Below are positions 18,262-38,160 of a DNA stretch of 45,697 nucleotides, piece after piece. Source of the stretch: an uncultured Mycoplasmatota bacterium (GTDB lineage: Bacteria; Bacillota_I; Bacilli_A; RF39; UBA660); the NCBI GenBank assembly GCA_946494345.1, contig CAMMBX010000002.1:1-45697 (forward strand), written 5' to 3'. The position numbers and the translations under genes were made by a program. The first letter of the stretch is position 1. Each line of letters starts with the position of its first letter. The notes under the pieces are model-generated. The model did not search any database and was not told the origin of the DNA. It saw only the letters and a list, made by a program, of their open reading frames with translations.

Positions 18262-18278
18262 AAAAAAAGGTGATAAAA

Positions 18279-19472
18279 ATGTTAAAAAGAGAAACTTACT
18301 TGTCAAGAATTAGGGGATTTTACGATTCTAATTTAGTAAAAATTTTAGTAGGAATAAGAAGATGTGGTAAGTCTGTAATTCTTAATCAGATAGTAGAAGA
18401 AATAAAAGATAAAGGCGTTAATGAAGATCATATTATATATGTTAATTTTGAACTTGTAGAATTTGAAGAATTACAAGACTATAAAAAGCTAAATAAATAT
18501 ATTAAAGATAATATTAAAGATGATAAAATTTATTATGTATTTTTAGATGAGATACAAAGAGTTGAAAAATTTGAAACAGTTGTAAATTCATTACGAGCAT
18601 CTCTTTCTAATATAAGTATATTTATAACTGGTTCTAATAGTAAACTTCTTTCTAATGAACTTTCTACAGTTTTGTCAGGTAGGTATGTTCTATTTAATAT
18701 CTATCCTTTAAGTTATAAAGAATTCACGGAACTATCTTTAAAAGATCCTAAGAGTGAAGAAACATTTTGGAATTTTGTAAAGTGGGGAGGACTTCCAAAT
18801 AGAGTAGAGTTTATTGATGAAGTTAATATAAAAGATTATCTTCATAGTGTGTTTGATTCTATTATTCTAAGGGATGTAGTAGAACGACTAGGACTTAAAG
18901 ATATTGTTTTATTTAATTTGTTATTACAATATGTTGTTGATACAACAGGAAGAGAATTTTCTGCTGATAATGTTATAAAGTTTTTAAAAGCTGAAGGAAG
19001 AAGTGTTTCTACTGAAACTTTATATATTTATTTAGATGCTTTATGTAAAGCTTTAATAATTAATAAGATTTATAGATATGATATACATGGTAAGACAATA
19101 TTAAAAACATTAAATAAATATTATATGACTGACTTGGGAATAGCACAAATAAAGAATAATAATTTTGAGATTAATAAAAGTTTTGCAATAGAAAATGTTG
19201 TTTATAATGAATTATTAGAAAGAGGATATGATGTTTATATAGGAAAAACGAAAAAAGGTGAAATAGATTTTATTGCCACAAAAACTGATGAAAAAATATA
19301 TATTCAAGTTGCATATTTTTTAAATAGTGAAAAGGTAATATCTAGAGAGTTTGGGGCATTTAAAGAAATAAATGATGATGTTCCTAAATATGTTCTTTCA
19401 TTAGACAAAGATGATTTATCAAGAGATGGTATTATACATAGAAATATTATAGAATGGTTATTAGAAAAATAA
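18279..19472 (+). CDS. AAA-type ATPase with a C-terminal PD-(D/E)xK-like domain (AAA_14 + DUF4143 architecture)
   Basis: Walker A GIRRCGKS, Walker B VFLDEIQ, and C-terminal GEIDFIA...YIQV. ATG 18279 follows AAAGGTG; the track start at 18270 is a GTG inside the RBS. Confidence 0.75.
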   Translation: MLKRETYLSRIRGFYDSNLVKILVGIRRCGKSVILNQIVEEIKDKGVNEDHIIYVNFELVEFEELQDYKKLNKYIKDNIKDDKIYYVFLDEIQRVEKFETVVNSLRASLSNISIFITGSNSKLLSNELSTVLSGRYVLFNIYPLSYKEFTELSLKDPKSEETFWNFVKWGGLPNRVEFIDEVNIKDYLHSVFDSIILRDVVERLGLKDIVLFNLLLQYVVDTTGREFSADNVIKFLKAEGRSVSTETLYIYLDALCKALIINKIYRYDIHGKTILKTLNKYYMTDLGIAQIKNNNFEINKSFAIENVVYNELLERGYDVYIGKTKKGEIDFIATKTDEKIYIQVAYFLNSEKVISREFGAFKEINDDVPKYVLSLDKDDLSRDGIIHRNIIEWLLEK

Positions 19473-20812: not shown

Positions 20813-20848
20813 AAAAAGAAGAAACTAGTTATAAAATTTCTTCTTTTT
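20813..20848. terminator. Bidirectional hairpin between convergent genes
   Basis: AAAAAGAAGAAA (20813-20824) pairs with TTTCTTCTTTTT (20837-20848). The right arm overlaps the 3' end of the minus-strand ATPase gene. Confidence 0.5.
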
Positions 20849-22085
20849 CATTTTCATTATAAGTTATACCTCTTATTTTACAATATATGTCTAAGTCATC
20901 ATCAACATCAATAATTTTGTATATTTCATCAAAAGAGGTTGAGCCATTTAATACTTTTTGCAAACCATCTTGTAACATTGTAATAACATCTGATTTATAT
21001 ACTAATTTATTTAGATCATCCTTTTCTAGACCTTCTTCATTTAAAGCATTTCTAATTTCATCATTTATCATTAATACTTCTTGAATAGCGATACGTCCAT
21101 GATAACCATTATTACATTTATCACATCCATTAGGATTAGCATTGTATATTTCTTCTACATCTTTTCCTAGAGCCATTTTAAAGACTTTCTTTTGATAAGG
21201 GGTAGTTTTTTCTTTAATATGACAGTGGGGACAAACCATTTTAGCAAGTTTTTGAGAAATGATTCCAGATAGAGCGCTTGATAATAGATATCTTTCAACA
21301 TTCATATCAAGTAATCTTTCAATAGTACTTAAAGAGTTATTAGTATGGATTGTAGATAATACTAAGTGTCCTGTAATAGAAGCACGAACAGCGATTTTAG
21401 CAGTTTCACTATCACGAATTTCACCAATTAAAATAACGTTAGGGTCTTGTCTTAAGATAGATCTTAGGACAGTAGCAAAGTCAAGGCCTATTTCACTATT
21501 TACTTGGACTTGGTTTAAGCCTTCAAGATTCATTTCTATTGGATCTTCTACAGTGATTATATTTGTTTCTTTTTTATTTAAGACTTGTAGAATAGAGTAA
21601 ACTGTTGTACTTTTACCAGAACCAGTGGCACCAGTTATTAAAATAATACCATTAGGTTCAGCGATCATCTTTTTTAACTTTTTAAAGTTATCTTCATTAA
21701 AGCCAAGGGATTCTATTCCTTCTAGACTTCTAGAATAATCAAGGATACGAATAACACATTTTTCTCCTTCATTAGTAGGAAGAGTAGAGACACGTGTTTC
21801 TAGGTTGATTCCTTTGATATTTCCTTTAATAGAACCATCTTGAGGAAGTCTACTTTCTGTGATATTCATATTGGCGATAAGTTTAATTCTTGTAATTAAA
21901 TTTCTCTCATATATTTTAGGAATTTCTGTATAATCTCTTAAATCTCCATCTATTCTAATTCTTACCATTAGACTATTTTCTCTTGGATCAAAATGAATAT
22001 CACTAGCACCTGCTTTAGCAGCATTGGCGATTATATCATCAACAACATTGACAATTGGTGTTTTTGTCATATCATATGTAACCAA
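20829..22085 (-). CDS. Type II/IV secretion-family assembly ATPase (GspE/PilB/ComGA-like), short form
   Basis: Walker A GATGSGKST, Walker B ILIGEIRD, His box GHLVLSTIHTN, and tetracysteine CPHC...CDKC. It lacks the long N-terminal domains of PilB. Confidence 0.9.
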   Translation of the reverse strand: MVTYDMTKTPIVNVVDDIIANAAKAGASDIHFDPRENSLMVRIRIDGDLRDYTEIPKIYERNLITRIKLIANMNITESRLPQDGSIKGNIKGINLETRVSTLPTNEGEKCVIRILDYSRSLEGIESLGFNEDNFKKLKKMIAEPNGIILITGATGSGKSTTVYSILQVLNKKETNIITVEDPIEMNLEGLNQVQVNSEIGLDFATVLRSILRQDPNVILIGEIRDSETAKIAVRASITGHLVLSTIHTNNSLSTIERLLDMNVERYLLSSALSGIISQKLAKMVCPHCHIKEKTTPYQKKVFKMALGKDVEEIYNANPNGCDKCNNGYHGRIAIQEVLMINDEIRNALNEEGLEKDDLNKLVYKSDVITMLQDGLQKVLNGSTSFDEIYKIIDVDDDLDIYCKIRGITYNENEKEEIL

Positions 22086-22170
22086 AGTATCAACCCCTTT
22101 ACTTTATTCTTTTAATTTACTATAATATATTATATAGTAAGAATGTCTTAATTACAAGAGGGAGCTTAGA

Positions 22171-24063
22171 ATGAAAAGGAAAAAAGTGTTAAATAATAGC
22201 GGATTTATGTTGGTAGAAACTTTAATAGTTGGTGTTTTTATTATGGGTATTTTTTCACTTCTTTATACGAATTTTTTTCCTCTTATTGGAGAGTATGAAC
22301 GTTATAGAGATTATGATACAGTAGAATCTACTTATGTTGCTCATTGGGCAAGGATGATAGCTTTAAAAGGTTTACCTGATAATATTTATAATACTGCTGC
22401 TACTAAGGGTTATGTTGATATTAGTGATTGTAATTTATATACAAACTCTGATGGTGTTAGTTCTTGTTCTTCTTTTAAGGCGATGAATAATGTATCAAAA
22501 ATATATTTAACTACATATTCTACAACTAATTTTAAGAACTTTGTAAAAGATAATAATAGTTATGATAGAAGGTTTAGAGAGTATATAGCATATTTACCAT
22601 CTTATAGTAAAAATACAAATAAGACTTCAGCGACAGGTTATTATAGAGTAATAGTTGAATATGTTTCTAATGATACTTATGAATATGGAAATATTGAAGT
22701 TTATAATGATTTTTCTGCTGATGAATGTAAGGATGGGCTAGCGAATTATTTATTAGCAAACATAGGAAGTAATGGTAGTACTTATGATGATGGAGAAGAT
22801 ACTTTTATAACAGGAACTGAGCCAAATAACTATATATGGTATAGTGGTAAATTATGGAGAGCAGTCTCTGTTAATAATGAAGATAAGACAGTAAAATTAG
22901 TAACACAACAGAATATAAGTACATTAGCATATAATGAAAATAATAAAGATACCGCTTTTGATGCTTCTTATATAGAAAAATGGTTAAATGATACAAGTGT
23001 AGATGGCTTTTTAGGTAATTTAAGAGAACCAGAGAAATTTATTGTTATGGATAGTGAATGGAATGCCACATCTACAACTGATGAGGAAATTAAACCAACT
23101 AAAACTAATATGGTAACTGATGCTGTGGGTTTAATTAGTGTTTATGAATATTTAATGACTTACTATAATAGTGGCATAGATAGTAGTGATAGTTATTTGC
23201 ATAATGGACTTACATGGTGGACTTTATCTCCATATAATAATAATCGTAGTTGGTCTATTAGTACTTATGATGGTGATGTTGAAGAAGAGGACAGTGCTTA
23301 TGAATATGGTGTGCGTCCTGCTATAAATTTGAAATGCAGTGTAAAAATTGCTGGTGGTAATGGTACGGCCTCAAACCCATATCGTTTAGATGGTGATAAT
23401 GATACTAGCTTAAATGGTGTTAGATTAAATACAAGATATAGTGGAGAATATATAAGGTTTGGAACTGGTGCTAATAACTTGTATCGTATTGTTAGCCATG
23501 AAACTTCTGGATTAACAAAAATAGTTAGTTCTGAACCATTAAGTAATGGTGGAAGCTTTCTTGAGTTAGCTTTTGGTAATAATACATTTTATGCTTCTAA
23601 TAACACTATAGGTTCATTTTTAAATGGCAGTTATTTGACTGGTGGCAGTTATTTAACAAGTAGTCAAGTAAATATGATACAAACAAATAATGTTTGGTAC
23701 TTAGGAATTGTAGAAGATACAATAGCAGGTAATGGAAATTATAAGTTAGCAAAATATAGTGATGAGAGTATGACAAGTACTATTTCTAGGACGACAACAG
23801 CAACAGTTGGACTGTTAAGATTTGGAGAATTAATGTCAGGTGCTTATGAGTTAAGAGATTCAGATCCAGATGAGAGAATTTGGTTATTAACACCACAAAA
23901 TTCATCATATGTTTGGTATGTTGATGGAATGGGTCAATTGGGTGCTATTGGTCCTGCTGCGTTTTCTTATTTGGTTCGTCCAGCCATGAATTTAAAATCT
24001 AATGTTATAATAACTGGGGGAGATGGAACACAAAATAATCCATTTACAATAAGTTTAGGTTAG
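22171..24063 (+). CDS. Giant type IV pilin-like protein: class III signal peptide plus two tandem copies of a roughly 200-aa domain
   Basis: The N-terminus KKVLNNSG|FMLVETLIV has Glu at +5 followed by a hydrophobic helix. The two copies end in YGVRPAINLKCSVKIAGGNGTASNPY and YLVRPAMNLKSNVIITGGDGTQNNPF. Confidence 0.8.
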   Translation: MKRKKVLNNSGFMLVETLIVGVFIMGIFSLLYTNFFPLIGEYERYRDYDTVESTYVAHWARMIALKGLPDNIYNTAATKGYVDISDCNLYTNSDGVSSCSSFKAMNNVSKIYLTTYSTTNFKNFVKDNNSYDRRFREYIAYLPSYSKNTNKTSATGYYRVIVEYVSNDTYEYGNIEVYNDFSADECKDGLANYLLANIGSNGSTYDDGEDTFITGTEPNNYIWYSGKLWRAVSVNNEDKTVKLVTQQNISTLAYNENNKDTAFDASYIEKWLNDTSVDGFLGNLREPEKFIVMDSEWNATSTTDEEIKPTKTNMVTDAVGLISVYEYLMTYYNSGIDSSDSYLHNGLTWWTLSPYNNNRSWSISTYDGDVEEEDSAYEYGVRPAINLKCSVKIAGGNGTASNPYRLDGDNDTSLNGVRLNTRYSGEYIRFGTGANNLYRIVSHETSGLTKIVSSEPLSNGGSFLELAFGNNTFYASNNTIGSFLNGSYLTGGSYLTSSQVNMIQTNNVWYLGIVEDTIAGNGNYKLAKYSDESMTSTISRTTTATVGLLRFGELMSGAYELRDSDPDERIWLLTPQNSSYVWYVDGMGQLGAIGPAAFSYLVRPAMNLKSNVIITGGDGTQNNPFTISLG

Positions 24064-24077
24064 AAGAAGGTGAAGAT

Positions 24078-24581
24078 ATGTTAAATAAAAAGGGAGTAAC
24101 TTCTGTTGAGTTATTAGTATGTTTTATTATTGTGGCAACTATAGTTGTTAGTATGTATAACTTAATATTAAATTATCGTAATAGAGAACAAATAGAAGAA
24201 ATTAATAATGAGGTTATATCTTTTAGTAATAACTTACAAGAGGTAATTCAGTCCGATTTAATTATGGGGCATTTAGTTAATGTTACTAATGTTAGCTCTG
24301 ATGGACATAAGGCAACTTTTACTTTTGACACTCCTAGTAGTTATACAACTACGCTTACAATTAATCCTGATACAGGGGTTATTAGTTATGGTAGAAGTGG
24401 TAATGTTATTAATTATGAAATACCAGGTATCGCTGATTTGATGCTTTCACCTGATTCTAAAATAGAATATATTGCGGCAGCGAATGGATATTTAAAGATA
24501 ACTATTATTTTAACGCATCCTAATTTTACTGATGAGACCTATTCTTTTATGATTAATTGCCTAGTTAATTATGCTTTTTAA
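24078..24581 (+). CDS. Minor pilin / pseudopilin-like protein
   Basis: The N-terminus MLNKKG|VTSVELLV has Glu at +5 and a hydrophobic helix. It is 167 aa and lies immediately downstream of the giant pilin. Confidence 0.7.
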   Translation: MLNKKGVTSVELLVCFIIVATIVVSMYNLILNYRNREQIEEINNEVISFSNNLQEVIQSDLIMGHLVNVTNVSSDGHKATFTFDTPSSYTTTLTINPDTGVISYGRSGNVINYEIPGIADLMLSPDSKIEYIAAANGYLKITIILTHPNFTDETYSFMINCLVNYAF

Positions 24582-26621: not shown

Positions 26622-26674
26622 TGCTAAAAATGTAATTATATGTTAAAGTAATGGTAATAGAAGGAGGATTCATT

Positions 26675-27955
26675 ATGGGCTTAACAGAAAAAGGTTATAG
26701 AAGAAGATTAATAGATAGTAAGATAGATCGTTATTTAGATACTTTTGGAGCGATTTTAATTGAAGGACCTAAATGGTGTGGAAAAACATGGACAGCTTTA
26801 AATCATGCAGAAAGTGTATCTTTTGTTACAGAAAATTCTACTAAAAGACTAGCTTTAATAAATCCTAAAAATATTTTTTCTGATAAAAGACCTCAGCTTA
26901 TAGATGAATGGCAAATTGTTCCCTCAATATGGGATTCGGTAAGACATGAATGTGATAGGGGTAGAGGTCCTGGCAATTTTATTTTAACTGGTTCTACAAC
27001 ACTTAGAAAAGAAATAGCTGACAGGCAAATTTATCATTCTGGGGCTGGAAGGATTGCTAGACTTAAAATGGAAACTATGAGTTTATATGAATCAGGTGAT
27101 TCTACTGGTGATGTATCTATAACTGATATGTTGGAGAATAAAGATATAAGCAAAAACATAGGAGAAGTAGAATTAAAATATCTTGCTAATTTAATTATAA
27201 GAGGTGGATGGCCAGCGAGTCTAAAAGCTAAGGAGGAAAATTATCCTTTAATACCAAAAAGTTATATTGACTCAATTTTAAATGTAGAGTTAGATGATGA
27301 TGAAAAAGCAAGAGATAAAAATAAAATGAATATGTTATTAAAATCTTTAGCAAGAAATGAATCAACTACCTGTAGTAATAAGACCCTTATAAAAGATATC
27401 GAAGAATATGAAACTGGTAATGATATATTAACAAGTAGAACTACACTTCTTGATTATTTGGATTTCTTAGAAAGACTTCATTTAATAGATAATCAAGAGT
27501 CATATAGTTCAAATTATCGTTCTCCTGAAAGAGTAGGTAAGTCAGTGAAAAGACATTTAGTTGATCCATCATTAGCTTGTTCCTTATTAAATCTTAATAT
27601 AGATAAGTTAATGAAAGATTTAAACACTTTCGGGTTTCTTTTTGAAGCACTTGTAGAAAGAGACTTAAGAATATATATGGATTACTTAGATGGAAAACTA
27701 TATCATTTTAGAGATAATGTCAGTGGCTTAGAAGTGGATTCAATATTAGAATTTGAAGATGGAGAATATGCTGCAGTTGAAATAAAATTAGGTTACAATG
27801 AAGTAGATGATGCAATTAAGAATTTAAAAGACTTTTATAATAATATGATTAAAAAGCCTAAATTTATGTGCGTTATTGTTGGCGTTTTAGAATCAGCTTA
27901 TAAAGATCCGGATACATCTATTTATGTAGTACCAATAACTGCTTTAAAACCATAG
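26675..27955 (+). CDS. AAA-type ATPase with a C-terminal PD-(D/E)xK-like domain (second, divergent DUF4143-type paralogue)
   Basis: Walker A GPKWCGKT, Walker B LIDEWQ, and C-terminal LEVDSIL...AVEIK. ATG 26675 sits 5-6 nt after GAAGGAGGA. Confidence 0.75.
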   Translation: MGLTEKGYRRRLIDSKIDRYLDTFGAILIEGPKWCGKTWTALNHAESVSFVTENSTKRLALINPKNIFSDKRPQLIDEWQIVPSIWDSVRHECDRGRGPGNFILTGSTTLRKEIADRQIYHSGAGRIARLKMETMSLYESGDSTGDVSITDMLENKDISKNIGEVELKYLANLIIRGGWPASLKAKEENYPLIPKSYIDSILNVELDDDEKARDKNKMNMLLKSLARNESTTCSNKTLIKDIEEYETGNDILTSRTTLLDYLDFLERLHLIDNQESYSSNYRSPERVGKSVKRHLVDPSLACSLLNLNIDKLMKDLNTFGFLFEALVERDLRIYMDYLDGKLYHFRDNVSGLEVDSILEFEDGEYAAVEIKLGYNEVDDAIKNLKDFYNNMIKKPKFMCVIVGVLESAYKDPDTSIYVVPITALKP

Positions 27956-27986: not shown

Positions 27987-30017
27987 TTAATATGTAGTAC
28001 TTGGGGTACCAGGAACAACTTCAGTTATATCCGGGTCTTTTTTAGGAGGATCAACTTCAGGTAAATTTTCTTCTTCTTTTTCTTTATCTTGATCTGTTTT
28101 TATTTCCTCTGTATCATCTTCTTCATTAGTAGGAGGTGTTACAGAATTGTTATTACCTTGACTTGGTGTTGTATTATCTTCAGGTTCATCGTATCCACTA
28201 CCTGATAATGTTAACACAACACTGCCACTTATTAAATCTATTCTTTTATTAGCAGGGTAACTTTGGGCTACTACATAACCACCATTACCTTTGAAAGTAA
28301 CATTAATTCCATGAGCATTAGCATAACTTTGGGCTGCTGCCTCACTATCACCAGTAAAGTCAGGTAATAAGTCATATGTAAAAGCAGTTTTGTAAGGACC
28401 AGTACCTGTTACTGTTTTTTCATAGTCTTCATCATTAATAGAGAATGAGAATTCTTTAATCATGTCAGGCTCTTCTTCTTCAAGATTTATTTTCATTGCC
28501 TTTATAATATCATCTCTACTTGCAGTATTAGGTACATAGTCCCATAAAACCATTCTACTTCGCTCATCATAAATCATTTGACCTGTACCATCTAAATATA
28601 ATTGTTCAATATTAATAAGGTCAGCATCATCTTTTTGTAGAGCATTATTCATTATATCTTTAGCAATGTCATAGAATGATAATATTTGTTGTTCTGTAAA
28701 GTTAGTATCTAAATTATTAGTAACAGTATTTAAAACATCCATTACTTGATTAATACTTTTCATATCTTTAACTTTATTTAATATTCCTTGAATAACTAAT
28801 TGTTGATTTAAACCTCTGTCTAAATCCCCAGCGGCTAGTTGTTTTCTGTTTCTAGCAAGTACTAAAGCCTGTTCACCATTTAAGGTTTGAAGTCCTGCAC
28901 TAATACAAACTTCTCCTTCACGACTAGAGTTATCAGTACATAAATCTTGAGGAACTTCAACAGTAATACCACCTAAGGTATCAACTAAACTAACTAAACC
29001 TTTAAAATTAATCTTAGCATAATAATCAATCGTAACATCAAAATAATTTTCAATCGTATCCATCATGCAGTCAGTACCATAGGCTGCAGCATGGGTTATT
29101 TTATTTTCAGGAGTACCACTCCAACAAGCGATAGGTACATAACTATCTCTTGGAATACTTAACATTGTAGCATTTAAAGTGTTAGGGTTAAAAGTAATTA
29201 AAATTAAACTATCACCATTAGCAACTGTATTTTTAGATAATCCTTCTTCTGCTGAGTCAACTCCCATTAAAAGAATAGTAAATGGTTCTGTTACATCTTT
29301 ACCAGCAGATGTTTTTTCTCTATCACTAGTATTAGATTTTTTCATTTCTTTTTCTTCAGTTAAAATGATTTTTGTATCACTATCAATATTTTCATAAGCT
29401 TCCATACTAGTGAACATTGAAGGGTAATCAGTTGGAACAAATAGGGCATCTACTTCACCATCATATAAATCAGCCATACCTGAAAAGTAATCATCATATT
29501 CTACTATTTCATTGTTTTTATCCAAATTATTTTTAGAAATTACTTCATTAGGTATTATATTTCCTTCTGGTGATGATTCATCAGAAAGAATACCAATTGA
29601 GTTATCCGATAGATCATCAATGCTCTCAATCTCGCTATCAGAACTTACAATTAAACTACTAGAGTAAGTAACATAGTCTCTATTAATACTTGAAAGAGTA
29701 CCATAAGCATACATTATTAGACCACTGATTGCACAGTTTATAATCAAATATATAATTAATAATGTAGTTAGAAGTCTTACCTTTTTTTCTTTGTGAAGTC
29801 TTTTGCTTCTTACTTTAAAGATAATAATTAAGTCAAATACTACAAAAATACCAATTACTATATATCTTATTACTTCTTCTACAGGACCTAGTCGTAAGAT
29901 GTTATAAATAGCAAAGATATTAGTTAATATAACAATAATACTTAATATTGCTAACCAAAGTCGGCCTTTTTTATTTTTCTTTTCTTTTGTCTCTTTATTC
30001 TCTTTATTCTTTCTCAT
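27987..30017 (-). CDS. LCP (LytR-CpsA-Psr) family cell-wall polymer ligase with a C-terminal PASTA-like domain and an acidic/Pro-rich tail
   Basis: N-terminal TM segments. LCP motifs FTILLMGVDS, GDSLILITFNP, LSIPRDSYV and LARNR. The C-terminal LPDFTGDSEAAAQSYANAHGINVTF...VVAQSYPANKRIDLISGSVVLTLSG resembles PASTA. ATG 30017 follows GGAGG by 8 nt. Confidence 0.85.
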   Translation of the reverse strand: MRKNKENKETKEKKNKKGRLWLAILSIIVILTNIFAIYNILRLGPVEEVIRYIVIGIFVVFDLIIIFKVRSKRLHKEKKVRLLTTLLIIYLIINCAISGLIMYAYGTLSSINRDYVTYSSSLIVSSDSEIESIDDLSDNSIGILSDESSPEGNIIPNEVISKNNLDKNNEIVEYDDYFSGMADLYDGEVDALFVPTDYPSMFTSMEAYENIDSDTKIILTEEKEMKKSNTSDREKTSAGKDVTEPFTILLMGVDSAEEGLSKNTVANGDSLILITFNPNTLNATMLSIPRDSYVPIACWSGTPENKITHAAAYGTDCMMDTIENYFDVTIDYYAKINFKGLVSLVDTLGGITVEVPQDLCTDNSSREGEVCISAGLQTLNGEQALVLARNRKQLAAGDLDRGLNQQLVIQGILNKVKDMKSINQVMDVLNTVTNNLDTNFTEQQILSFYDIAKDIMNNALQKDDADLINIEQLYLDGTGQMIYDERSRMVLWDYVPNTASRDDIIKAMKINLEEEEPDMIKEFSFSINDEDYEKTVTGTGPYKTAFTYDLLPDFTGDSEAAAQSYANAHGINVTFKGNGGYVVAQSYPANKRIDLISGSVVLTLSGSGYDEPEDNTTPSQGNNNSVTPPTNEEDDTEEIKTDQDKEKEEENLPEVDPPKKDPDITEVVPGTPSTTY

Positions 30018-30200
30018 TAAATTAACCTCCAACGTTTAAAACATAAAACTATACCTTATCATTATAGACTATTATCAGAATCATTTCAACTCTAGTCTTT
30101 TTGTTTGAACTGTCAAGTTGACGATATATCTATATTTTATAGAGACAGTTTGTCGAAGTTTCTGTTATAATGTAAATAGGAGAATAGGAGTTGATGGGGT

Positions 30201-32030
30201 ATGAAAAAAATAATGTATGTAACACTTATCTTAATTATGTTATTTACCTTTATTCCTAATGTATCGGCATCAACTAGTAGTTATATCGTTTTAAATGAAA
30301 ATAAATACTTTAGGGAAGAACCTGGTGGTGACTTAATTATGGGAGTTACTGATGGGGTGTTACTTGCAGGGGAAAAGGTAGATGTTATTTCTAAAGATGG
30401 TAAAAGTGGCTATGGCTGTAAAAATAATTGGTACAAAGTTAAATATAATGATTTAGAAGGATATATTTGTTCATCTAATCAGGCAATTATTGAAGTAGCT
30501 GATGTTGATATTAATGGCAGCTTTGAACAAGAAATGTTAAATAAGGGGTTTAAAGAAAGTTATTTACCTTATTTAAAGGCAATGCACGAGAAACATCCTA
30601 ATTGGATCTTTACACCAGTATCTATTGGTATTTCTTTTAATGATGCAGTTACTAATGAAAGTTATGGAGAAATTAGTTTAGTTGATGGATCTGATGAGAC
30701 CCTTAGAAGTAAGGAATGGCCTTATTATCAAAATGGTGTTTATCAACAAATAGAACCAGGATGGTATGTTGCTAGTAGGGATACTGTGTCTTATTACTTA
30801 GATCCTAGAAATTTCTTATCAGAAGAGTATATATTTATGTTTGAAAATTTAAAATATAATTCAAATATTCAAACAGAGGATGCAGTAAGAGGAGTTACTA
30901 GTGGTACTTTTCTAAATACTAATGAATACTTAAATATTTTAATGAAAACTGCCGAAACTTATAATGTCAGTCCAGTTTATATAGCTAGTAGGATTAGACA
31001 AGAGAAAGGTAGTAATGATAGTATTTCAACAACAGGTGGTAGTTTTACTTTTACAGTTGATAATAATTGTTTAAATAATTTAGGTTATGCAAGTAATCCA
31101 TCTACTTGGAATGCTCTTAATTCTTGTGGTAATGGTAAAACTTATAGTGGCATTTATAACTATTTTAATATCGGGGCATATAGTTCTTATCAATCCCCAC
31201 AAATTAGAGGATTAATTTGGGCTAATGGTGGTTATGATGCTTCTGTTACTACTTATAGAAGGCCATGGACATCAAAAGAAGAAGCTATTATGGGTGGTGT
31301 TGAATATATTGCTAGTAAATATATAGATGCTAATCAAAATACTTTGTATTATCAAAAATTTAATGTAGCACCTTCTGCAGTTTATCCTACATATACACAT
31401 CAATATATGACTAATATTAGAGCTGTGTCTAATGAAGCATATAGTATTTATAAGAGTTATAGAGATAATAATCTTTTAGGTAATACTTATGAATTTCTAA
31501 TTCCTGTCTATGAAAATATGCCTAATGATAATGAAGTGATATTACCTGATGATGAAGAAAAGGAAGAGACAATCGTTACTACTCCTGCTATTGATGTTAA
31601 TACGGGAGTTGTAGGAGCAGGATTTAAGATTGATGGAGATGTTATTTCTAATATTTCATTTAATACTAATATTGATACAATTAATAGTATTTTAAGTAGT
31701 GTTAATGCAAATTTAAAAGTTATAGATTATAAAGATAGATATGGTGTTAAAGCTAGTGGTAATGTTGGTACAGGAGATACTTTGGTAATTAGTAATGGTA
31801 ATACTAGTGTATCTTATAAAGTTGTTATTTATGGTGATAATAATGGAGATGGTAAGACTAGTATTGTAGATTTACTTAGAGTTCAAAAAGATATTTTAGG
31901 AAGTAGTAATTTATCTACTTATGATAGGGAAGCTAGTGATACTAATAAAGATGGTAAAGTTGATGTTATAGATTTACTTAGAGTTCAAAAACAAATACTT
32001 GGTAATAATGTAATAGAACAGGAGGGCTAG
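30201..32030 (+). CDS. Secreted peptidoglycan hydrolase-like protein: signal peptide, SH3b-like domain, glucosaminidase (GH73-like) domain and C-terminal dockerin
   Basis: Signal peptide ending VSA|ST, SH3b-like NNWYKVKYNDLEGYI, and glucosaminidase-like ASRIRQEKG...YNYFNIGA...YYQKFN. Two dockerin F-hand segments: GDNNGDGKTSIVDLLRVQKDILG and DTNKDGKVDVIDLLRVQKQILG. Confidence 0.8.
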   Translation: MKKIMYVTLILIMLFTFIPNVSASTSSYIVLNENKYFREEPGGDLIMGVTDGVLLAGEKVDVISKDGKSGYGCKNNWYKVKYNDLEGYICSSNQAIIEVADVDINGSFEQEMLNKGFKESYLPYLKAMHEKHPNWIFTPVSIGISFNDAVTNESYGEISLVDGSDETLRSKEWPYYQNGVYQQIEPGWYVASRDTVSYYLDPRNFLSEEYIFMFENLKYNSNIQTEDAVRGVTSGTFLNTNEYLNILMKTAETYNVSPVYIASRIRQEKGSNDSISTTGGSFTFTVDNNCLNNLGYASNPSTWNALNSCGNGKTYSGIYNYFNIGAYSSYQSPQIRGLIWANGGYDASVTTYRRPWTSKEEAIMGGVEYIASKYIDANQNTLYYQKFNVAPSAVYPTYTHQYMTNIRAVSNEAYSIYKSYRDNNLLGNTYEFLIPVYENMPNDNEVILPDDEEKEETIVTTPAIDVNTGVVGAGFKIDGDVISNISFNTNIDTINSILSSVNANLKVIDYKDRYGVKASGNVGTGDTLVISNGNTSVSYKVVIYGDNNGDGKTSIVDLLRVQKDILGSSNLSTYDREASDTNKDGKVDVIDLLRVQKQILGNNVIEQEG

Positions 32031-32033
32031 ACA

Positions 32034-33368
32034 GTGATTAATTTTAAGAGAATATTATTTATATTAGGACTTAGCTTCCTTTTCTTTCTGCCTTTTAAGG
32101 TAGATGCTGCTTCTATAAGCATCGCAGGTACTACTTCTACAGGTACAGTTGGAGGAAATATTACAGTAAGAGTTACAATTAATGAGCCTACAGGTTTAGG
32201 AAGTTGGGAATATAGTTTGGATTATGACAGTAGTAAGTTACAACTTTTAAGTGGTTCTACTCATGTTGTTGGTTATGTTGATGGACAAGGAGAAACGAGT
32301 AGGAGTTATACTTATAGTTTTAGAGTTAAAGGAACAGGCAGTACCACTATTTCAGTTGTAAATACTGCTATTGCTAGTTGGGATGAAGTAGTTAGTAGTC
32401 CTACTGATAGTACAACTATTAATTTAGTAAGTAGAGAAGAAGTAGAGACTAGTTATAGTGATGATAATAATCTTTCTAGTTTAGAGGTAGAAGGCTATAG
32501 TCTAAGTCCTGAGTTTAATAGTGGTACTACTTCATATAGTGTAAATGTAGATAGTGATGTAACTAGTGTTAAAGTAAATGCAACTGCAAGTGATAGTAAA
32601 GCTAAAGTCAGTGGGGCAGGAGAAGTAGAAGTAAGTGAAGGTGCTAATACGATTAATGTGGTAGTAGAAGCAGAAAATGGTGCTACTAAAACTTATAAAA
32701 TAGTTGTTAATGTTAAAGAGAAAGATCCTATTAATGTTAAAGTTAATAAAGAAAACTTAAGTGTAGTTAGAGATAAAGAAAGTCTAAATGATTTAATTAA
32801 AGATTATTTTGTAGAAACTACAGTTAATATTGATGAAGAAGAAGTTCCTGCTTATACTATAGAAGCATTAAATCTTACTTTATTAGCTTTAAGAGACGAT
32901 GATGGTAAAATTAAGTTTTATATATATGATGATGGAAATTTTACTTTATATCAAGAATTAGGTAGTGATACTCTTACTGTTCATCTTTTAGATAATGGTA
33001 AATATCCTGATAATTATAAAAAATATACAGTTAAAATAGATGGAGAAGAGTATACTGTTTATAAGATAAATAAAGATAGTGATTACTATTTAGTTTATGG
33101 AGAAAATGTCGAAACTGGTAAAAAAGGACTATATTTGTATGATAGTGTTGATAATACTATTCAAAGATATTATAATGAAGAAGTTAATAGTTTAAATGAT
33201 AGATTAAGGATAAATTCATTTATTATTATTGGACTTATTAGTTTAATTGTTATTATTTTGATAATTTTCTTAATTACATTACATACTAAGAATAATAGTA
33301 AAAGAAAAAAGAAAAAGGAAATTAAAAAAAGATTAAAACAAGAAAAAGAAGATTTTTTAAAGGATTAG
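32034..33368 (+). CDS. Membrane-anchored scaffoldin-like protein: signal peptide, cohesin-like domain, cadherin-like beta-sandwich, C-terminal TM segment and Lys-rich tail
   Basis: Cohesin-like GGNITVRVTINEPTGLGSWEYSLDYDSSKLQLL, and cadherin-like LSSLEVEGYSLSPEFNSGTTSYSVNV...NGATKTYKIVVNV. The TM segment FIIIGLISLIVIILIIFLITL is followed by KRKKKKEIKK. GTG start. Confidence 0.7.
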   Translation: MINFKRILFILGLSFLFFLPFKVDAASISIAGTTSTGTVGGNITVRVTINEPTGLGSWEYSLDYDSSKLQLLSGSTHVVGYVDGQGETSRSYTYSFRVKGTGSTTISVVNTAIASWDEVVSSPTDSTTINLVSREEVETSYSDDNNLSSLEVEGYSLSPEFNSGTTSYSVNVDSDVTSVKVNATASDSKAKVSGAGEVEVSEGANTINVVVEAENGATKTYKIVVNVKEKDPINVKVNKENLSVVRDKESLNDLIKDYFVETTVNIDEEEVPAYTIEALNLTLLALRDDDGKIKFYIYDDGNFTLYQELGSDTLTVHLLDNGKYPDNYKKYTVKIDGEEYTVYKINKDSDYYLVYGENVETGKKGLYLYDSVDNTIQRYYNEEVNSLNDRLRINSFIIIGLISLIVIILIIFLITLHTKNNSKRKKKKEIKKRLKQEKEDFLKD

Positions 33369-33378
33369 GAGTGTAACT

Positions 33379-34026
33379 ATGGAAGTAAAACATCATAATA
33401 AACATCTAGGAATAATGATATTTATTGGTTTTTTATTAATTATTATTGGTATTATTTCTTATATTATTATTAATTATAACAATGACCAAGCTGAAGTTAG
33501 AAAGAGAATGGACGTTGTTGTTGATACTTATAAAACATTTAGAAGTGATGTAGATGCCTTTAATACTATTAGAGATAATATATATACTGAGGTTATGCAA
33601 GATATGTATTATCAGACTTTAAAGGATAATGATACTAGATTTAAAGAACTTTATAATAGTTATAAAGATAGCTTAGAAAAAGTAGATGAAGATTATAAAA
33701 AAATCGAAGATAAATGTATAAATGTTTTACATCCTAAAGCTGATGTTAATAATAAGTGTGAAGCGATGGTTGTTGGTTATGAAGAAGTAGTTAATACTTA
33801 TATTAGTGATGTAAATAGTTATAATAACCTTATTAAGTCTTATAATAAATGGTTAGAAACTAATAATAGTAGTGATCCCAAATTAGAAGAAATTGAGATA
33901 GATAGAGATTATTTAGATGTAAATGGAGATAGAGAATATGCAGGTAGGAAGGAAATAGAAACAGAGATAACTGATGAGACGATGAAATCTAATGAGAATG
34001 GGGAAGAGTCTAGTGAAGAAAGTTGA
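33379..34026 (+). CDS. Membrane-anchored protein with a helical, acidic ectodomain; function unknown
   Basis: A single N-terminal TM segment followed by charged, helix-prone sequence. The family was not recognised. Confidence 0.5.
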   Translation: MEVKHHNKHLGIMIFIGFLLIIIGIISYIIINYNNDQAEVRKRMDVVVDTYKTFRSDVDAFNTIRDNIYTEVMQDMYYQTLKDNDTRFKELYNSYKDSLEKVDEDYKKIEDKCINVLHPKADVNNKCEAMVVGYEEVVNTYISDVNSYNNLIKSYNKWLETNNSSDPKLEEIEIDRDYLDVNGDREYAGRKEIETEITDETMKSNENGEESSEES

Positions 34027-35098
34027 TTTAGATAAGACAATTTTAATGCCTAGTATTGCTAGTGAAATAAAAAAAGAGAAAAGAAAAGAAAAGAAGATTA
34101 TTTCCAAAGTTATAATAGCTTTGTTTATAATAGGAAGTTCGTTTTCTTTGTTTCTTTTTTATGGACCAATAGATGGGTTTAGGAACTTTTGGATTACTTC
34201 AGCGATGACTTCGATGTCACATCAATATCTTGCTACTTGGTTTTATAATGATGAAGTTATTAATGAAGTACTATCTAATAATAATATAATTGAAGTAGAT
34301 GAAAATACTAATCCTGATTTAATTAATTTTAAAGACTATGATGCTGATACTAAGATATATAAGAATGAATATGAAAAAGAGATTTTAACAAAAGATCCTG
34401 GTAATGATTTATATAAAGTTATTGAAGTTAATGGTAGTGGTTATCAAGGTTATTTAGTAGCGATATATGACCCTTCAAGAGTTTCTATTGCGACAACGGC
34501 TTATCTTGGTAAAAGAGGAGAAGCGATTACTACAGTTGCTAAAAGAGAAAATGCTATAATTGCTATTAATGCTGGTGGTTTTTATGACCCTGATTGGAAT
34601 AGTAATGGGGCTCTACCACATGGTACAGTTATTAAAGATGGAGAAATTGTAAGTGATTTTGATGATGCTAAGATGGGTGGAGGCTTTGTTGGATTTACTA
34701 AAGATAATAAACTAGTACTTGGTAAGATGACTAAGGAAGAGGCACTTGCTATGGGGATTAGAGATGCTATTGAGTTTGGACCTTTCTTAATCGTAAATGG
34801 TAAGAGTAGTTTTGTTAAAGGTAATGGTGGTTGGGGTATTGCTCCAAGAACTGCTATTGGTCAAAGAGAAGATGGTATAGTCTTATTCTTAGTTATTAAT
34901 GGACGTCTTGCTACTTCAATCGGTGCTGATATGGGAGATTTAACAGAGATAATGGAAAACTATGGTGCTGTTAATGCTGCTAATATGGATGGAGGTAGCT
35001 CTAGTGCTTTAGTAATTAATAATGAGATTATTAATACACCAGTTGCCGGTGGAGAGAATGGCCTTAGAGATATACCAACATTTTGGATAGTTAAGTAA
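33992..35098 (+). CDS. Phosphodiester glycosidase family protein (DUF2233/NAGPA-like), membrane-anchored
   Basis: N-terminal TM segment and C-terminal motifs INAGGF...FGPFLIVNGK...PRTAIGQ...NMDGGSSS. The start is uncertain among ATG 33992, ATG 33998 and GTG 34013, all overlapping the upstream gene. Confidence 0.75.
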   Translation: MRMGKSLVKKVDLDKTILMPSIASEIKKEKRKEKKIISKVIIALFIIGSSFSLFLFYGPIDGFRNFWITSAMTSMSHQYLATWFYNDEVINEVLSNNNIIEVDENTNPDLINFKDYDADTKIYKNEYEKEILTKDPGNDLYKVIEVNGSGYQGYLVAIYDPSRVSIATTAYLGKRGEAITTVAKRENAIIAINAGGFYDPDWNSNGALPHGTVIKDGEIVSDFDDAKMGGGFVGFTKDNKLVLGKMTKEEALAMGIRDAIEFGPFLIVNGKSSFVKGNGGWGIAPRTAIGQREDGIVLFLVINGRLATSIGADMGDLTEIMENYGAVNAANMDGGSSSALVINNEIINTPVAGGENGLRDIPTFWIVK

Positions 35099-35114: not shown

Positions 35115-35201
35115 GCAGGAATGGCGGAATAGGTAGACGCACTACTTTGAGGGGGTAGTGATTAGTTAATCGTGCGAGTTCGAGTCTCGTTTCCTGCACC
35201 A
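35115..35201 (+). tRNA. tRNA-Leu (anticodon GAG), class II with a long variable arm and encoded CCA
   Basis: Acceptor stem GCAGGAA/TTCCTGC, anticodon stem CTACT/GGTAG with loop TTGAGGG, T-arm GCGAG-TTCGAGT-CTCGT, and a 15-nt variable arm. Confidence 0.9.
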
Positions 35202-35449: not shown

Positions 35450-36937
35450 ATGGAACGAGCATATTGTTGTATTGATTTAAAGAGTTTTTATGCATCAGTA
35501 GAATGTGTTGAAAGAGGACTTAATCCCTTAAAAACTAATCTTGTTGTTGCTGATAAATCTAGGACAGAAAAGACGATATGTTTAGCGGTAAGCCCTTCAT
35601 TAAAACAATATGGTATTCCTGGAAGAGCGAGGCTTTTTGAAGTGTTAAGTAAGGTTAAAGAAATTAATAAAATAAGAAGAAAAGCTAATGGCTATAAAAA
35701 GTTTAGTGGTAAAGCAGTTAATGATGATATCTTAAAGAAAGATAAGACTAAAGAATTAGATTTAATTATCGCTCCTCCTAGAATGGCTCATTATATTGAT
35801 TATTCAGCTAAAATATATAATATCTATTTAAAGTACATTGCTAAAGAAGATATATTTGTTTATTCTATTGATGAAGTCTTTATGGATATAACTAATTACT
35901 TAAAGTACTATAAACTATCTCCTAAAGACTTAATCACAAAAATAATTAAAGATGTTTATGATACAACTGGTATTACAGCGACAGGGGGAATTGGTACTAA
36001 TTTATTTCTTGCTAAAGTTGCTATGGATGTAGTAGCAAAACATACTGAAGCTAATAAGTTTGGAGTAAGAATTGCCGAACTTAATGAAATGTCTTATAGA
36101 AAAATGTTATGGAGTCATGTGCCTATTACTGATATTTGGCGAGTAGGTAAGGGTATTTCTAAAAGATTAGAGAAGTACGGTATGTATACAATGGGTGATG
36201 TTGCCAGATGTTCTATTAATAATGAAGACTTACTATATAAATTATTTGGAGTTAATGCTGAGCTTTTAATAGACCATGCTTGGGGTTATGAGCCTTGTAC
36301 AATAGAGTCTATTAAAAACTATAAACCACTTGCTAAAAGCATTAGTAGTGGTCAAGTTTTACAAAGTCCATATTCATATGATAAAGCTAAGTTAATAGTA
36401 AGAGAAATGGCAGAGTTGCTAGCTTTAGACCTCGTCTCTAAAAAATTAGTAGCAGAACAGTTAGTATTAACTATTGGTTATGATATAGAAAATGTTACTG
36501 ATGATTATAATGGGAGTGTTACAATAGATTATTATGGACGGGCTATACCAAAACACGCTCATGGAACTATTAACTTAGATTATAAAACATCTTCATCTAA
36601 AATAATTACTACAGCGATGATTAAGTTATATGATAGGATTATAAATCCTAAGTTGTCAGTTAGAAGAGTTACTATGGCTGCTACAAAACTAGCTAGTGAA
36701 GATGAAGAAATAGGTAAAGTTAGGTATAGACAGTTAGATTTATTTTCTAGTTTGGAAGGACAAGATAATAAGTTAGCTTATAATAGAGAAGTTTTAAAAG
36801 AAGAAAACAATCTTCAAAATGCCATGTTAAATATAAAAGAAAAATATGGTAAAAATGCTATTTTAAAAGGTATGGATTTAGAAGATGAGGCAACAACAAT
36901 TGATAGGAATAGGCAAATAGGAGGACATCATGAATAA
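35450..36937 (+). CDS. Y-family (translesion) DNA polymerase, UmuC/UvrX-like
   Basis: N-terminal CIDLKSFYASVE motif, SIDEVFMD catalytic acidic motif, and 495 aa. It is coupled by overlap to a YolD-like gene. Confidence 0.9.
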   Translation: MERAYCCIDLKSFYASVECVERGLNPLKTNLVVADKSRTEKTICLAVSPSLKQYGIPGRARLFEVLSKVKEINKIRRKANGYKKFSGKAVNDDILKKDKTKELDLIIAPPRMAHYIDYSAKIYNIYLKYIAKEDIFVYSIDEVFMDITNYLKYYKLSPKDLITKIIKDVYDTTGITATGGIGTNLFLAKVAMDVVAKHTEANKFGVRIAELNEMSYRKMLWSHVPITDIWRVGKGISKRLEKYGMYTMGDVARCSINNEDLLYKLFGVNAELLIDHAWGYEPCTIESIKNYKPLAKSISSGQVLQSPYSYDKAKLIVREMAELLALDLVSKKLVAEQLVLTIGYDIENVTDDYNGSVTIDYYGRAIPKHAHGTINLDYKTSSSKIITTAMIKLYDRIINPKLSVRRVTMAATKLASEDEEIGKVRYRQLDLFSSLEGQDNKLAYNREVLKEENNLQNAMLNIKEKYGKNAILKGMDLEDEATTIDRNRQIGGHHE

Positions 36938-37331
36938 TTATGACGATATTATAAATATGCCTCATCATGTATCTAAAATAAGAAAGCCTATGTCTTTACA
37001 AAATAGATCTGCACAGTTTGCTCCTTTTTCTGCTTTAACAGGGTATGATGAGAAGATAAGAGAAGTCGCAAGGGAAACATCTAAGAAAATAGAATTAGAT
37101 GAAGGTATAAAATTAATGCTAAATGAGAAATTATGTCTTATAAAAAATGATGTTAGATTAAGACCTAAAGTAACAATTACTTATTTTGTTAGAGATACAA
37201 GGAAAGAAAACAGAGGTATATATAAAACTATAACTAGCAATGTTAAAGTAGTTGATGAAGTGTATAAAAGAATAATCTTAATAGATAATACTATAATATC
37301 TTTCGATAATATAATTGATATTAAGTTTTGA
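36930..37331 (+). CDS. YolD-like protein (accessory partner of Gram-positive Y-family polymerases)
   Basis: 133 aa, with FAPFSALTGYDE near the N-terminus and a C-terminal beta-rich region ending FDNIIDI. It overlaps the polymerase gene by 8 nt. Confidence 0.75.
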   Translation: MNNYDDIINMPHHVSKIRKPMSLQNRSAQFAPFSALTGYDEKIREVARETSKKIELDEGIKLMLNEKLCLIKNDVRLRPKVTITYFVRDTRKENRGIYKTITSNVKVVDEVYKRIILIDNTIISFDNIIDIKF

Positions 37332-37375
37332 TTATATTTCTTAAAAAATATGTATATACTATTATTGTATACTAG

Positions 37376-37404
37376 TTGACATTTTTAGAAAAAAATAGTA
37401 TATT
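37376..37404 (+). promoter_or_regulatory. Sigma-A promoter of the repeat-RNA transcription unit
   Basis: TTGACA (37376-37381), a 17-nt spacer, then TATATT (37399-37404). Confidence 0.6.
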
Positions 37405-37431
37405 TATATCACAGATGAGATTACTCATCGT

Positions 37432-37542
37432 GGAAATGTTTTTCGCTTCTGGATGGTGCGATTAATAAATGATTCCAGTCGACAATGTTTTTCGCTTCCA
37501 GGTGGTGCGACTAATAAATGATCCTGGTTGAAAATGTTAAAA
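37432..37542 (+). ncRNA. Candidate type III antitoxin RNA: 2 full and 1 partial copies of a 49-nt direct repeat
   Basis: Copy 1 (37436-37484) is ATGTTTTTCGCTTCTGGATGGTGCGATTAATAAATGATTCCAGTCGACA. Copy 2 (37485-37533) is ATGTTTTTCGCTTCCAGGTGGTGCGACTAATAAATGATCCTGGTTGAAA. A partial third copy starts at 37534. There is no ORF, and the unit has its own promoter and terminator. Confidence 0.7.
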
Positions 37543-37544
37543 AA

Positions 37545-37574
37545 CTTCATCATTTATGGTGAAGTTTTTGTTTT
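37545..37574 (+). terminator. Rho-independent terminator between the repeat RNA and the toxin ORF
   Basis: CTTCATCA / TGGTGAAG forms an 8-bp stem (one G-U pair) with a TTTA loop, followed by TTTTTGTTTT. Confidence 0.75.
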
Positions 37575-37669
37575 GCATGTAAAAAAACAATTTATATATT
37601 GACGAACATAAGTATAATTTAGTATATTTAAATTACATATCATATTTGTTGTTTGGGGGTGTTTGTAAA

Positions 37670-38137
37670 ATGAAAGTTAAAACAGGATATTTATATCATA
37701 TTAAAGATGAATACTTTGATGTTGTAAATGATGATAATTTGATGCAAAATCATGAAAGAGGAAAGAAACGACCAACATATTTTACAATTAAAGATAAAAA
37801 TATACTATGGTTTATTCCTATAAGTTCTAAAGTGGAAAAGTATCAAAAAATAATTGATAAGAAAATAAAAAAATATGGGTTTTGTAATACAATAATAATT
37901 AGGAAAATTGCTGGTAGTAATGCTGCTATTTTATTGCAAAATGCTTTTCCTACTATAGAGAAATATATTGACCATGTACATACTGTTGATGGAGTGCCTT
38001 TAAAAGTTCCTACTGATTTACAAACAGAAATTAAAAGCATGTTTAAAAATATGTTAGGTTTGAAAAAGAGAGGGACTAATTTATTCTTCGCTGATATAGA
38101 TAGTTTAGTGGAAAAAATGTTAAAAGAAAATAAATAG
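37670..38137 (+). CDS. Candidate type III toxin-antitoxin system toxin (ToxN/AbiQ/CptN-like endoribonuclease)
   Basis: 155-aa basic protein directly downstream of the repeat array and terminator. The N-terminal pattern MKVKTGYLYHIKDEYF...KKRPTYFTI...WFIPISSK resembles the ToxN/AbiQ N-termini as I recall them. ATG 37670 follows GGGGG. Confidence 0.6.
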   Translation: MKVKTGYLYHIKDEYFDVVNDDNLMQNHERGKKRPTYFTIKDKNILWFIPISSKVEKYQKIIDKKIKKYGFCNTIIIRKIAGSNAAILLQNAFPTIEKYIDHVHTVDGVPLKVPTDLQTEIKSMFKNMLGLKKRGTNLFFADIDSLVEKMLKENK

Positions 38138-38160
38138 ATATTATAGAGAGGAGATATTTT

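Follow-up and report, generated by a model that had tools for sequence, protein, structure and literature searches.

Three adjacent genes in a 45.7-kb stretch of low-GC DNA (~27%) from an uncultured Mycoplasmatota bacterium (contig CAMMBX010000002.1; hereafter the window) probably encode the conserved core of a filament that resembles type IV pili, in which an ATPase and a two-gene pilin operon serve to present a lectin module. The gene for the GspE/PilB-type ATPase (20829-22085, minus strand; 418 amino acids (aa), an open reading frame (ORF) with a Pfam T2SSE match) diverges from the genes for pilin 1 (22171-24063, plus strand; 630 aa) and pilin 2 (24078-24581, plus strand; 167 aa). An earlier note on this DNA had described an ATPase gene divergent from two prepilin-like genes, and the coordinates of the ORFs agree with it exactly. 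Our analysis shows that the 630-aa protein is an ordinary pilin of ~180 aa, continued by a short linker and two C-type-lectin-like DUF6273 domains.

Pilin 1 opens with a class III (prepilin) leader, MKRKKVLNNSG, ending at Gly-1 (22171-22203, plus strand, as are the other segments of this gene). The pilin module that follows (mature residues 12-178; 22204-22704) corresponds to the whole 180-aa protein of relatives. The junction, or linker (residues 179-199; 22705-22767), is delimited by the end of the short allele and the start of the module homology. It leads into the first DUF6273 domain (residues ~200-406; 22768-23388), which was recognized by Pfam, by the structure model and by Foldseek, and then into a second copy that has diverged but is still DUF6273-like (residues ~407-630; 23389-24063, including the stop codon), recognized by internal BLASTP and the model. 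In most relatives pilin 1 is ~180 aa long and ends at the equivalent of window residue 178-180, with YGNIELYKK before the stop codon, as at L007 9449-9991 (L-numbers denote related loci and P-numbers homologous proteins). Besides the window, Candidatus Onthousia excrementipullorum and a few other species have the 630-aa form. Its independent assembly in 31 protein clusters shows that it is no artefact. The homology of the module with non-pilin carriers begins at about residue 189, and the predicted local distance difference test (pLDDT) score of the model is low before residue 190. The composition is thus that of a modular pilin: a pilin module that stands alone in relatives, a linker, and a domain that is not specific to pili.

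The first domain matches Pfam DUF6273 (PF19789) over residues 244-388 (E 1.5e-14; 54.7 bits, cut-off 23.5) and is modeled with a pLDDT of ~90. The second copy was detected by internal BLASTP and structure only (pLDDT 85-93). The two halves of the module are homologous (BLASTP E 1e-12, 29% identity) and share the end motif RPA(I/M)NLK...GG(N/D)GT..NP(Y/F). Foldseek matched the module to 9qa6, the Thomasclavelia ramosa IgA peptidase with its DUF6273 N-terminal region (E 2.8e-8), and the structure search gave weak matches to C-type lectin domains. The module also matches many phage DUF6273, receptor-binding and tail-fibre proteins, with E values down to 5e-14. The N-terminal domain of the T. ramosa peptidase has been identified as DUF6273 (PMC12402451, PDB 9qa6), and the family has been described as a C-type-lectin-like receptor-binding domain of phages that is diversified by diversity-generating retroelements (PMC10743442). 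Variation of the module by such a retroelement was ruled out here: the scanned ORFs of the window contain no reverse transcriptase domain, and the window holds no template/variable repeat, a search for a template repeat involving 22171-24063 having given chance-level AT-rich matches only. The module therefore varies by ordinary divergence and by exchange of alleles and modules.

The tandem module (~440 aa, residues ~190-630) is not confined to pilin 1. In other species it sits on pilin 2 (L019, L067), so that to call the second gene a minor pilin, as the earlier note did, is an assumption. It recurs in thousands of proteins on an unlike N-terminal carrier, composed of a membrane segment, a SYAAF-like motif and a ~180-aa domain. 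Other modules are found on both pilins: pilin 1 bears InlB-type B repeats at L047 and L052, and pilin 2 bears Listeria-Bacteroides repeats at L078, a glycine-rich ALK_LTK_GRD-type module at L098 and a glycine-rich extension at L089 (the corresponding Pfam names are Flg_new, Flg_new_2 and ALK_LTK_GRD). Proteins longer than 300 aa make up 16 of the 150 best representatives of the pilin 1 family (~11%), and in a neighbour-joining tree of the ATPase gene (computed without bootstrap) the long alleles of pilin 1 are scattered among the short ones. This scatter argues for repeated gain, loss or exchange of the module. The 630-aa form is thus a sporadic allele with a shuffled module, and it fits the concept of modular pilins set out by Raynaud et al. 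(2021). The earlier note had pictured a giant pilin whose stalk presents a large ectodomain; the stalk and ectodomain stand, and the giant family of its own gives way to a sporadic graft on a ~180-aa pilin. Nonsynonymous change in the DUF6273 module runs about 2-3 times faster than in its carrier, as would be expected of a surface domain that binds a ligand.

The non-pilin carriers of tandem DUF6273 domains (motif SYAAF/TFAYF) are of note in their own right, as in relatives their genes often lie directly beside the pilus ATPase gene. Examples are L009 11355-13259, L032 7729-9642 and L044 11400-13283, all on the minus strand, and proteins P0032-P0120; short forms of the carrier are encoded at L057 6508-7188 and 7225-7860 and at L075 12509-13129. 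A TasA/SipW-type identity was considered for this family and found no support from Pfam, NCBIfam or a sequence search of the PDB.

The assignment of both proteins as prepilins is well supported by sequence and context, if not structurally proven, and draws on the processing motif, on alignment in register with GspG, on weak matches to ComGD and ComGE, and on the gene context. In pilin 1, the leader is followed by FMLVETLIV, with Phe at +1, Glu at +5 and a hydrophobic α1N segment, and the globular head has two conserved cysteines (87 and 99). In pilin 2, the leader MLNKKG is followed by VTSVELLV, and the family has Met, Ile, Leu or Val at +1. Both N-termini had been called class III leaders with Glu at +5, and Gly-1 and Glu+5 are indeed present in each. 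The prepilin-type pattern matches only these two among the 71 ORFs of at least 45 aa in six frames of the window, in agreement with the claim that the window holds no further pseudopilin. All 74 motif-matched orthologues of pilin 1 have Gly-1, and so do five of the six loci that the pattern had missed. In pilin homologues that were identified independently of the motif, from homology or gene position, Glu+5 is invariant, and Gly-1 is invariant in pilin 2 and nearly so in pilin 1. Gly6 and Glu11 of pilin 2 are likewise invariant in an alignment that includes orthologues at 23-38% identity. The pilin 1 profile aligned with E. coli GspG in the correct register (hhalign, E 1.2e-4), and pilin 2 did so in register but more weakly; the two N-termini are themselves related (hhalign probability 92.5%). 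Weak matches, below the cut-off, link the N-terminus of pilin 1 to ComGD (E 0.0037) and that of pilin 2 to ComGE (E 0.007), and orthologues of pilin 2 reach or approach the threshold of Pfam N_methyl (L078, E 6.6e-4). The AlphaFold model of the pilin 1 module, built from a pilin-only alignment (pLDDT 87), has a helix at 9-48 and then a head of helix and four strands.

Three homologues of pilin 1 (L072 2547-3179, P0276 and P0267) have Ala or Arg in place of Gly-1. Ala at -1 is the one substitution that PilD is known to tolerate in part; the Arg may be a sequencing error or mark a variant that is not processed. A third pilin-like gene occurs in one relative (L047 18161-20056, minus strand), 7 kb from the ATPase gene and with no pilus machinery beside it. 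Its 631-aa product has a canonical GFTLIELL leader, a large C-terminal region assigned to no family and matches to both Pfam N_methyl (E 2.3e-6) and TIGR02532. Pilus genes, or prepilin substrates, are thus scattered in the clade.

The gap between the stop codon of pilin 1 and the start of pilin 2 is 14 bp and contains an AAGGTG ribosome-binding site, and for this reason the two genes probably form one operon. The AT-rich divergent intergenic region of 85 bp (22086-22170), as read from its sequence, holds the GGAG ribosome-binding site of the pilin 1 gene and promoter-like hexamers in both directions (plus strand 22098-22126, minus strand 22157-22129), consensus matches that in AT-rich DNA are only moderately above those of shuffled sequences.

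The ATPase is shown by its sequence to be an extension ATPase of the GspE/PilB (T2SSE) family with intact catalytic motifs (Pfam T2SSE, E 4.7e-121). Among the NCBIfam models it scored 468 bits with GspE, 448 with PilB and 279 with ComGA, all under the equivalog cut-offs (300 for ComGA). Its nearest relatives of solved structure in the PDB are GspE, PilF and PilB (E ~1e-99), with retraction ATPases far behind. The Walker A and B motifs, His box and CxxC pairs reported earlier were all located, and the Asp box as well: Walker A GATGSGKST at 152-160, Asp box at 177-184, Walker B at 217-225, His box at 238-247, and the tetracysteine motif as CPHC 285-288 and CDKC 321-324. The catalytic motifs are invariant in relatives. 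The protein comprises the N2 and C-terminal domains, without an N1/MshEN domain. Its TTG start is supported by the conservation of the first residues, MVT[YF]D, in relatives. In distant relatives (L084 9986-12790; L081, L072, L057, L075) the ATPase has a C-terminal tail of 150-500 aa, rich in Lys, Glu and Asn, of low complexity and devoid of membrane segments; the window ATPase has ~25 such residues. A platform protein fused to the ATPase and hidden in these long tails was considered and ruled out, as the tails are charged, of low complexity and non-membrane.

The three genes are conserved as a unit. With one genome taken per GTDB species, the ATPase query returned 80 loci at 70-96% ATPase identity, in metagenome-assembled genomes labelled uncultured Bacilli, Tenericutes or Candidatus Onthousia from the gut of chicken, rabbit, ruminant, mouse and human. 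The genomes of the clade are small, ~1.5 Mb, and include closed ones (OZ006970.1, 1.52 Mb; an ENA contig of 1,519,355 bp). Linkage of the ATPase gene with pilin 1 and pilin 2 was found in 80 of 80 loci, and essentially every locus has the order ylbL/SepM-like protease, ylbJ-like membrane protein, pilin 2, pilin 1 and divergent ATPase. The trio is kept in more distant metagenomic relatives (the ATPase of L089 is 65% identical, and pilin 1 P0317 is 31% identical to that of the window), and in the same setting, with lepA-hemW-HD-tmk on one side and ylbJ-ylbL-mutS on the other. With a profile of the pilin 1 module, a search of 1.84 billion representatives collected 1,482 clusters at 50% identity, of which 879 scored E<=1e-10. 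The earlier note had considered that the pair might prove to be the displaced end of a comG/pil operon, without conserved linkage. As the linkage recurs in 80 species and in distant relatives, the trio is a conserved unit and not such an end. The neighbours that resemble ylbJ and ylbL have matches to families of sporulation and housekeeping proteins (YlbJ-like: TIGR02871, E 3.5e-48). We leave them out of the system, because ylbJ and ylbL, as in B. subtilis, are an ancestral gene pair of Bacillota.

The ratio of nonsynonymous to synonymous substitution rates (dN/dS), estimated from four relatives, was lowest in the ATPase (0.05-0.07), followed by pilin 2 (0.11-0.17), the pilin 1 module (0.20-0.24) and the DUF6273 module (0.29-0.43); the values are approximate, as dS (0.6-1.2) is near saturation. 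By this sequence measure, all three genes are shown to be under purifying selection. The finding bears on whether the trio could be the decaying, non-functional vestige of an operon for a pilus or competence that was formerly complete, as the local absence of the usual partner genes and the reduced genomes of the lineage might suggest. We consider decay the least probable of the explanations discussed here and hardly credible: at least 80 species have intact reading frames, the catalytic motifs do not vary, the ATPase and the two pilin modules have dN/dS values of 0.05-0.24, and there is active exchange of modules.

Several observations weigh against a pilus-like filament. Pfam N_methyl and TIGR02532 match neither pilin of the window even under relaxed thresholds (E up to 10 and up to 1). 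The earlier note had looked to profile models of the two N-termini for confirmation, and the curated models of N-terminal methylation did not supply it for either protein. Foldseek found no significant match of the pilin-module model to a solved pilin in the PDB; its top matches were pantothenate synthetases (E ~0.06), which are meaningless. The ORFs of the window of at least 90 aa contain no T2SSF or Peptidase_A24 domain (Pfam), as the earlier note had held in finding no PilC/ComGB platform and no PilD/ComC peptidase in the window. No gene for a platform or peptidase lies within ~10 kb of the ATPase gene in ~85 related loci, although in Firmicutes pilB/comGA and pilC/comGB are normally adjacent. 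Two pilins are encoded here, whereas characterized systems have a major pilin and ~4 minor pilins (PMC10790768). Finally, Phe at +1 makes the N-terminus of pilin 1 the more major-pilin-like of the two, which fits poorly with a location exclusively at the tip.

The negative results for the assembly machinery extend over several searches. When E. coli HofC, GspF and GspO served as phmmer queries, nothing matched at E<=10 among six-frame ORFs of the ~85 loci (1.5 Mb), in which, as a positive control, HofB and GspE matched 92 ATPase fragments. Pfam searches on 34 unassigned membrane-protein clusters from the flanks gave no strong match to a platform or peptidase among the best 25 of 35 matched families. 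Extension of the ends of the window through contigs of the same species revealed no gene for either. In distant relatives, the genes that follow the ATPase gene were considered as candidates for PilD and PilC and ruled out, since they encode thymidylate kinase, an HD protein, HemW and LepA. The position is therefore that an ATPase and the sequence features of pilins are present, and that neither platform nor peptidase was found in the window or the flanks searched.

Every type IV filament characterized so far depends on four kinds of component: pilins, an extension ATPase, a platform protein and a prepilin peptidase (PMC10790768). One may ask whether the present system is an exception, a self-sufficient minimal machine that works without a PilC-type platform, a dedicated peptidase or both, perhaps with the help of the YlbJ-like protein. 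The absence of T2SSF and A24 homologues from the window and from 1.5 Mb of flanks (~85 genomes), the strict conservation of the trio, and the ylbJ-like gene that abuts pilin 2 in 78 loci would all suit such a machine. We nonetheless judge it very unlikely. It departs from the requirement of every characterized filament for peptidase and platform, and the YlbJ-like protein is polytopic and nucleoside-transporter-like, with no likeness to PilC, the pairing of its gene with ylbL being ancestral. Furthermore, Gly-1 and Glu+5 are a signature of processing by a peptidase, and as none is encoded locally, at least one essential gene would lie elsewhere. The near-invariance of these residues implies, from sequence, a prepilin peptidase encoded elsewhere in the genome. 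With an unlinked peptidase, an unlinked platform gene is the parsimonious expectation. For the same reason, the canonical arrangement, with machinery encoded elsewhere, is more likely than a minimal non-canonical system.

We thus favor a filament assembled by dispersed machinery. Once prepilins 1 and 2 are in the membrane, the unlinked peptidase would cut off their leaders, which end in Gly-1. The ATPase, acting via an unlinked platform of the PilC type, would polymerize both pilins through their α1 helices, and the DUF6273 pair of pilin 1 would be displayed beyond the cell wall, most probably at the tip of the filament or close to it. A location at the tip has been argued for modular pilins (PMC8179133). 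There the module may bind a gut glycan or a protein ligand and so mediate adhesion, and swaps of module between alleles (DUF6273, InlB-type repeats, glycine-rich) would alter the specificity for the ligand.

The arrangement would be a different one if the 630-aa protein were the major subunit. Each subunit would then expose two lectin domains along a fibre resembling a bottle brush, and pilin 2 would be a priming or minor pilin. The N-terminus of pilin 1 is indeed of the canonical major type (Gly-1, then F.LVETL) and its gene is the first in the operon, pilin 2 has Met, Ile, Leu or Val at +1, and the window has no further pilin gene. The C-terminus of pilins is on the filament surface in known pili, and a flexible linker could permit such a coat. 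However, the modular pilins that have been studied are of low abundance and are predicted at the tip (PMC8179133), and a separate major pilin may be encoded elsewhere, one related genome having an extra pilin gene. The same module is carried by pilin 2 at L019 and L067, which suggests that pilins 1 and 2 hold equivalent, probably terminal, positions. A brush-like fibre is accordingly a rather doubtful proposition. We are equally hesitant about a further-reaching version, in which the locus would be the simplest type IV filament so far, with an ATPase that is genetically uncoupled from a PilC-type platform or acts without one, with two pilins of which either can receive a graft, and with two lectin domains per major-pilin-like subunit.

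The system with which the trio invites comparison is the Com pilus, a type IVd pilus encoded by comGA-GG and comC and the simplest characterized type IV filament (PMC10790768). Both belong to monoderm bacteria and consist of core components only, the Com peptidase gene is also unlinked from its pilin operon, and the N-termini have the weak similarity to ComGD and ComGE given above. The differences are considerable. No comGB lies beside the ATPase gene here, two pilins are encoded instead of five, a small helical major pilin like ComGC is lacking, the ATPase is nearer to GspE/PilB than to ComGA, and the genes diverge rather than forming a single operon. None of the marks of a Com pilus (adjacency of comGA and comGB, a small ComGC, four minor pilins, one operon) was therefore found. 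The comparison raises the possibility of a short, wall-spanning pseudopilus of the Com or type II secretion system (T2SS) kind, with machinery elsewhere, that would drive the lectin module across the peptidoglycan or function in DNA uptake or secretion. This is the alternative that we take most seriously, while still considering it unlikely. It accommodates the presence of only two pilins and the small genomes of ~1.5 Mb, it agrees with the choice of Com minor pilins by the weak N-terminal matches, and it sits well with the result that no locus contains genes for a retraction ATPase, PilMNO or secretin-type proteins. It does not account for an ATPase that scores higher with GspE and PilB than with ComGA and has the tetracysteine motif, nor for the absence of comG operon order and content. 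The mature pilins, at 160-170 aa, are much larger than ComGC, which has ~100 aa. In addition, a binding module speaks for an adhesive role rather than one in DNA uptake.

An adhesive filament finds its closest parallel in the modular pilins of Streptococcus sanguinis, PilB with a von Willebrand factor A module and PilC with a lectin module, a design that is widespread (Raynaud et al. 2021, PMC8179133). In common with these, the protein described here has a small N-terminal pilin module, a short linker and a bulky ligand-binding module, belongs to a monoderm, is predicted to act in adhesion, and draws on modules that are reused on different carriers. Unlike these, its pilin families escape InterPro and Pfam N_methyl, its DUF6273 domains are in tandem, either pilin carries the module depending on the species, and there is no large pil locus, only an ATPase and two pilins. 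A pil locus of the S. sanguinis type has ~20 genes. Large pilins with an extra domain that is exposed at the tip and mediates binding are also known in CofB of enterotoxigenic Escherichia coli, TcpB of Vibrio cholerae and GspK of the T2SS (PMC8179133). Those, however, belong to diderm type IVb pili or T2SS with complete and clustered machinery, and their extra domains are not DUF6273 and are fixed within the family. For the module itself, the relatives are the phage receptor-binding "tentaclins" (PMC10743442) and the T. ramosa IgA peptidase (PMC12402451), which share the Pfam family and fold, exposure at the surface, and a setting in gut Firmicutes or their phages. They differ in that here DUF6273 is grafted on a pilin and the window has neither reverse transcriptase nor template and variable repeats.

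The modular-pilin concept is thus known already. What is new consists of two unannotated pilin families, a tandem DUF6273 module shared with a second family of carriers, and a conserved unit of an ATPase and two pilins without an adjacent platform gene. Such a unit is unusual for Firmicutes. The possibility of a type IV filament that has fewer pilins than the Com pilus was raised in earlier work (PMC10790768), and the trio may be a candidate. If the filament is real, uncultured small-genome Bacilli of the gut have a widespread adhesion device that is now annotated as hypothetical proteins, and the pilin stalk is a chassis for exchangeable ligand-binding modules. As N_methyl misses these pilins, a survey based on IPR012902 would probably miss them too, and surveys of modular pilins that depend on N_methyl overlook whole families. 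Our search of the literature for pili or competence in RFN20-type Bacilli found none.

The surroundings of the trio have features of their own. Downstream, a conserved cluster of surface-protein genes (30201-35098) encodes a dockerin/SH3 protein of 609 aa, a cadherin-like protein of 444 aa, a 215-aa protein of unknown function and a phosphodiester glycosidase (NAGPA); a dockerin would not be expected in a gut Bacillus with a small genome. The gene at 27987-30032 (minus strand) codes for a LytR-CpsA-Psr/PASTA protein. The tRNA-Leu(GAG) gene (35115-35201) is followed by ~5 kb (35450-40108) that have no counterpart in the 80 related loci and contain a Y-family (ImpB/UmuC-type) polymerase gene, several small ORFs of unknown function and an AAA gene; this segment may be an element integrated at the tRNA gene. 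The AAA ATPase gene (38674-39500, minus strand) is split into ORFs of 123 and 151 aa, and on a contig of the same species it is a single gene of 309 aa (L101 2118-3047), so that the split is a frameshift, which marks either a pseudogene or a sequencing error. An intergenic gap of the putative island contains, at 37435-37532, a tandem duplication of a 49-nt unit, whose two copies are 82% identical and match no Rfam family at the gathering threshold. Lastly, two paralogous AAA_14/DUF4143 ATPase genes (18270-19472 and 26651-27955; clusters C15 and C10) flank the trio, and their presence varies among close relatives.

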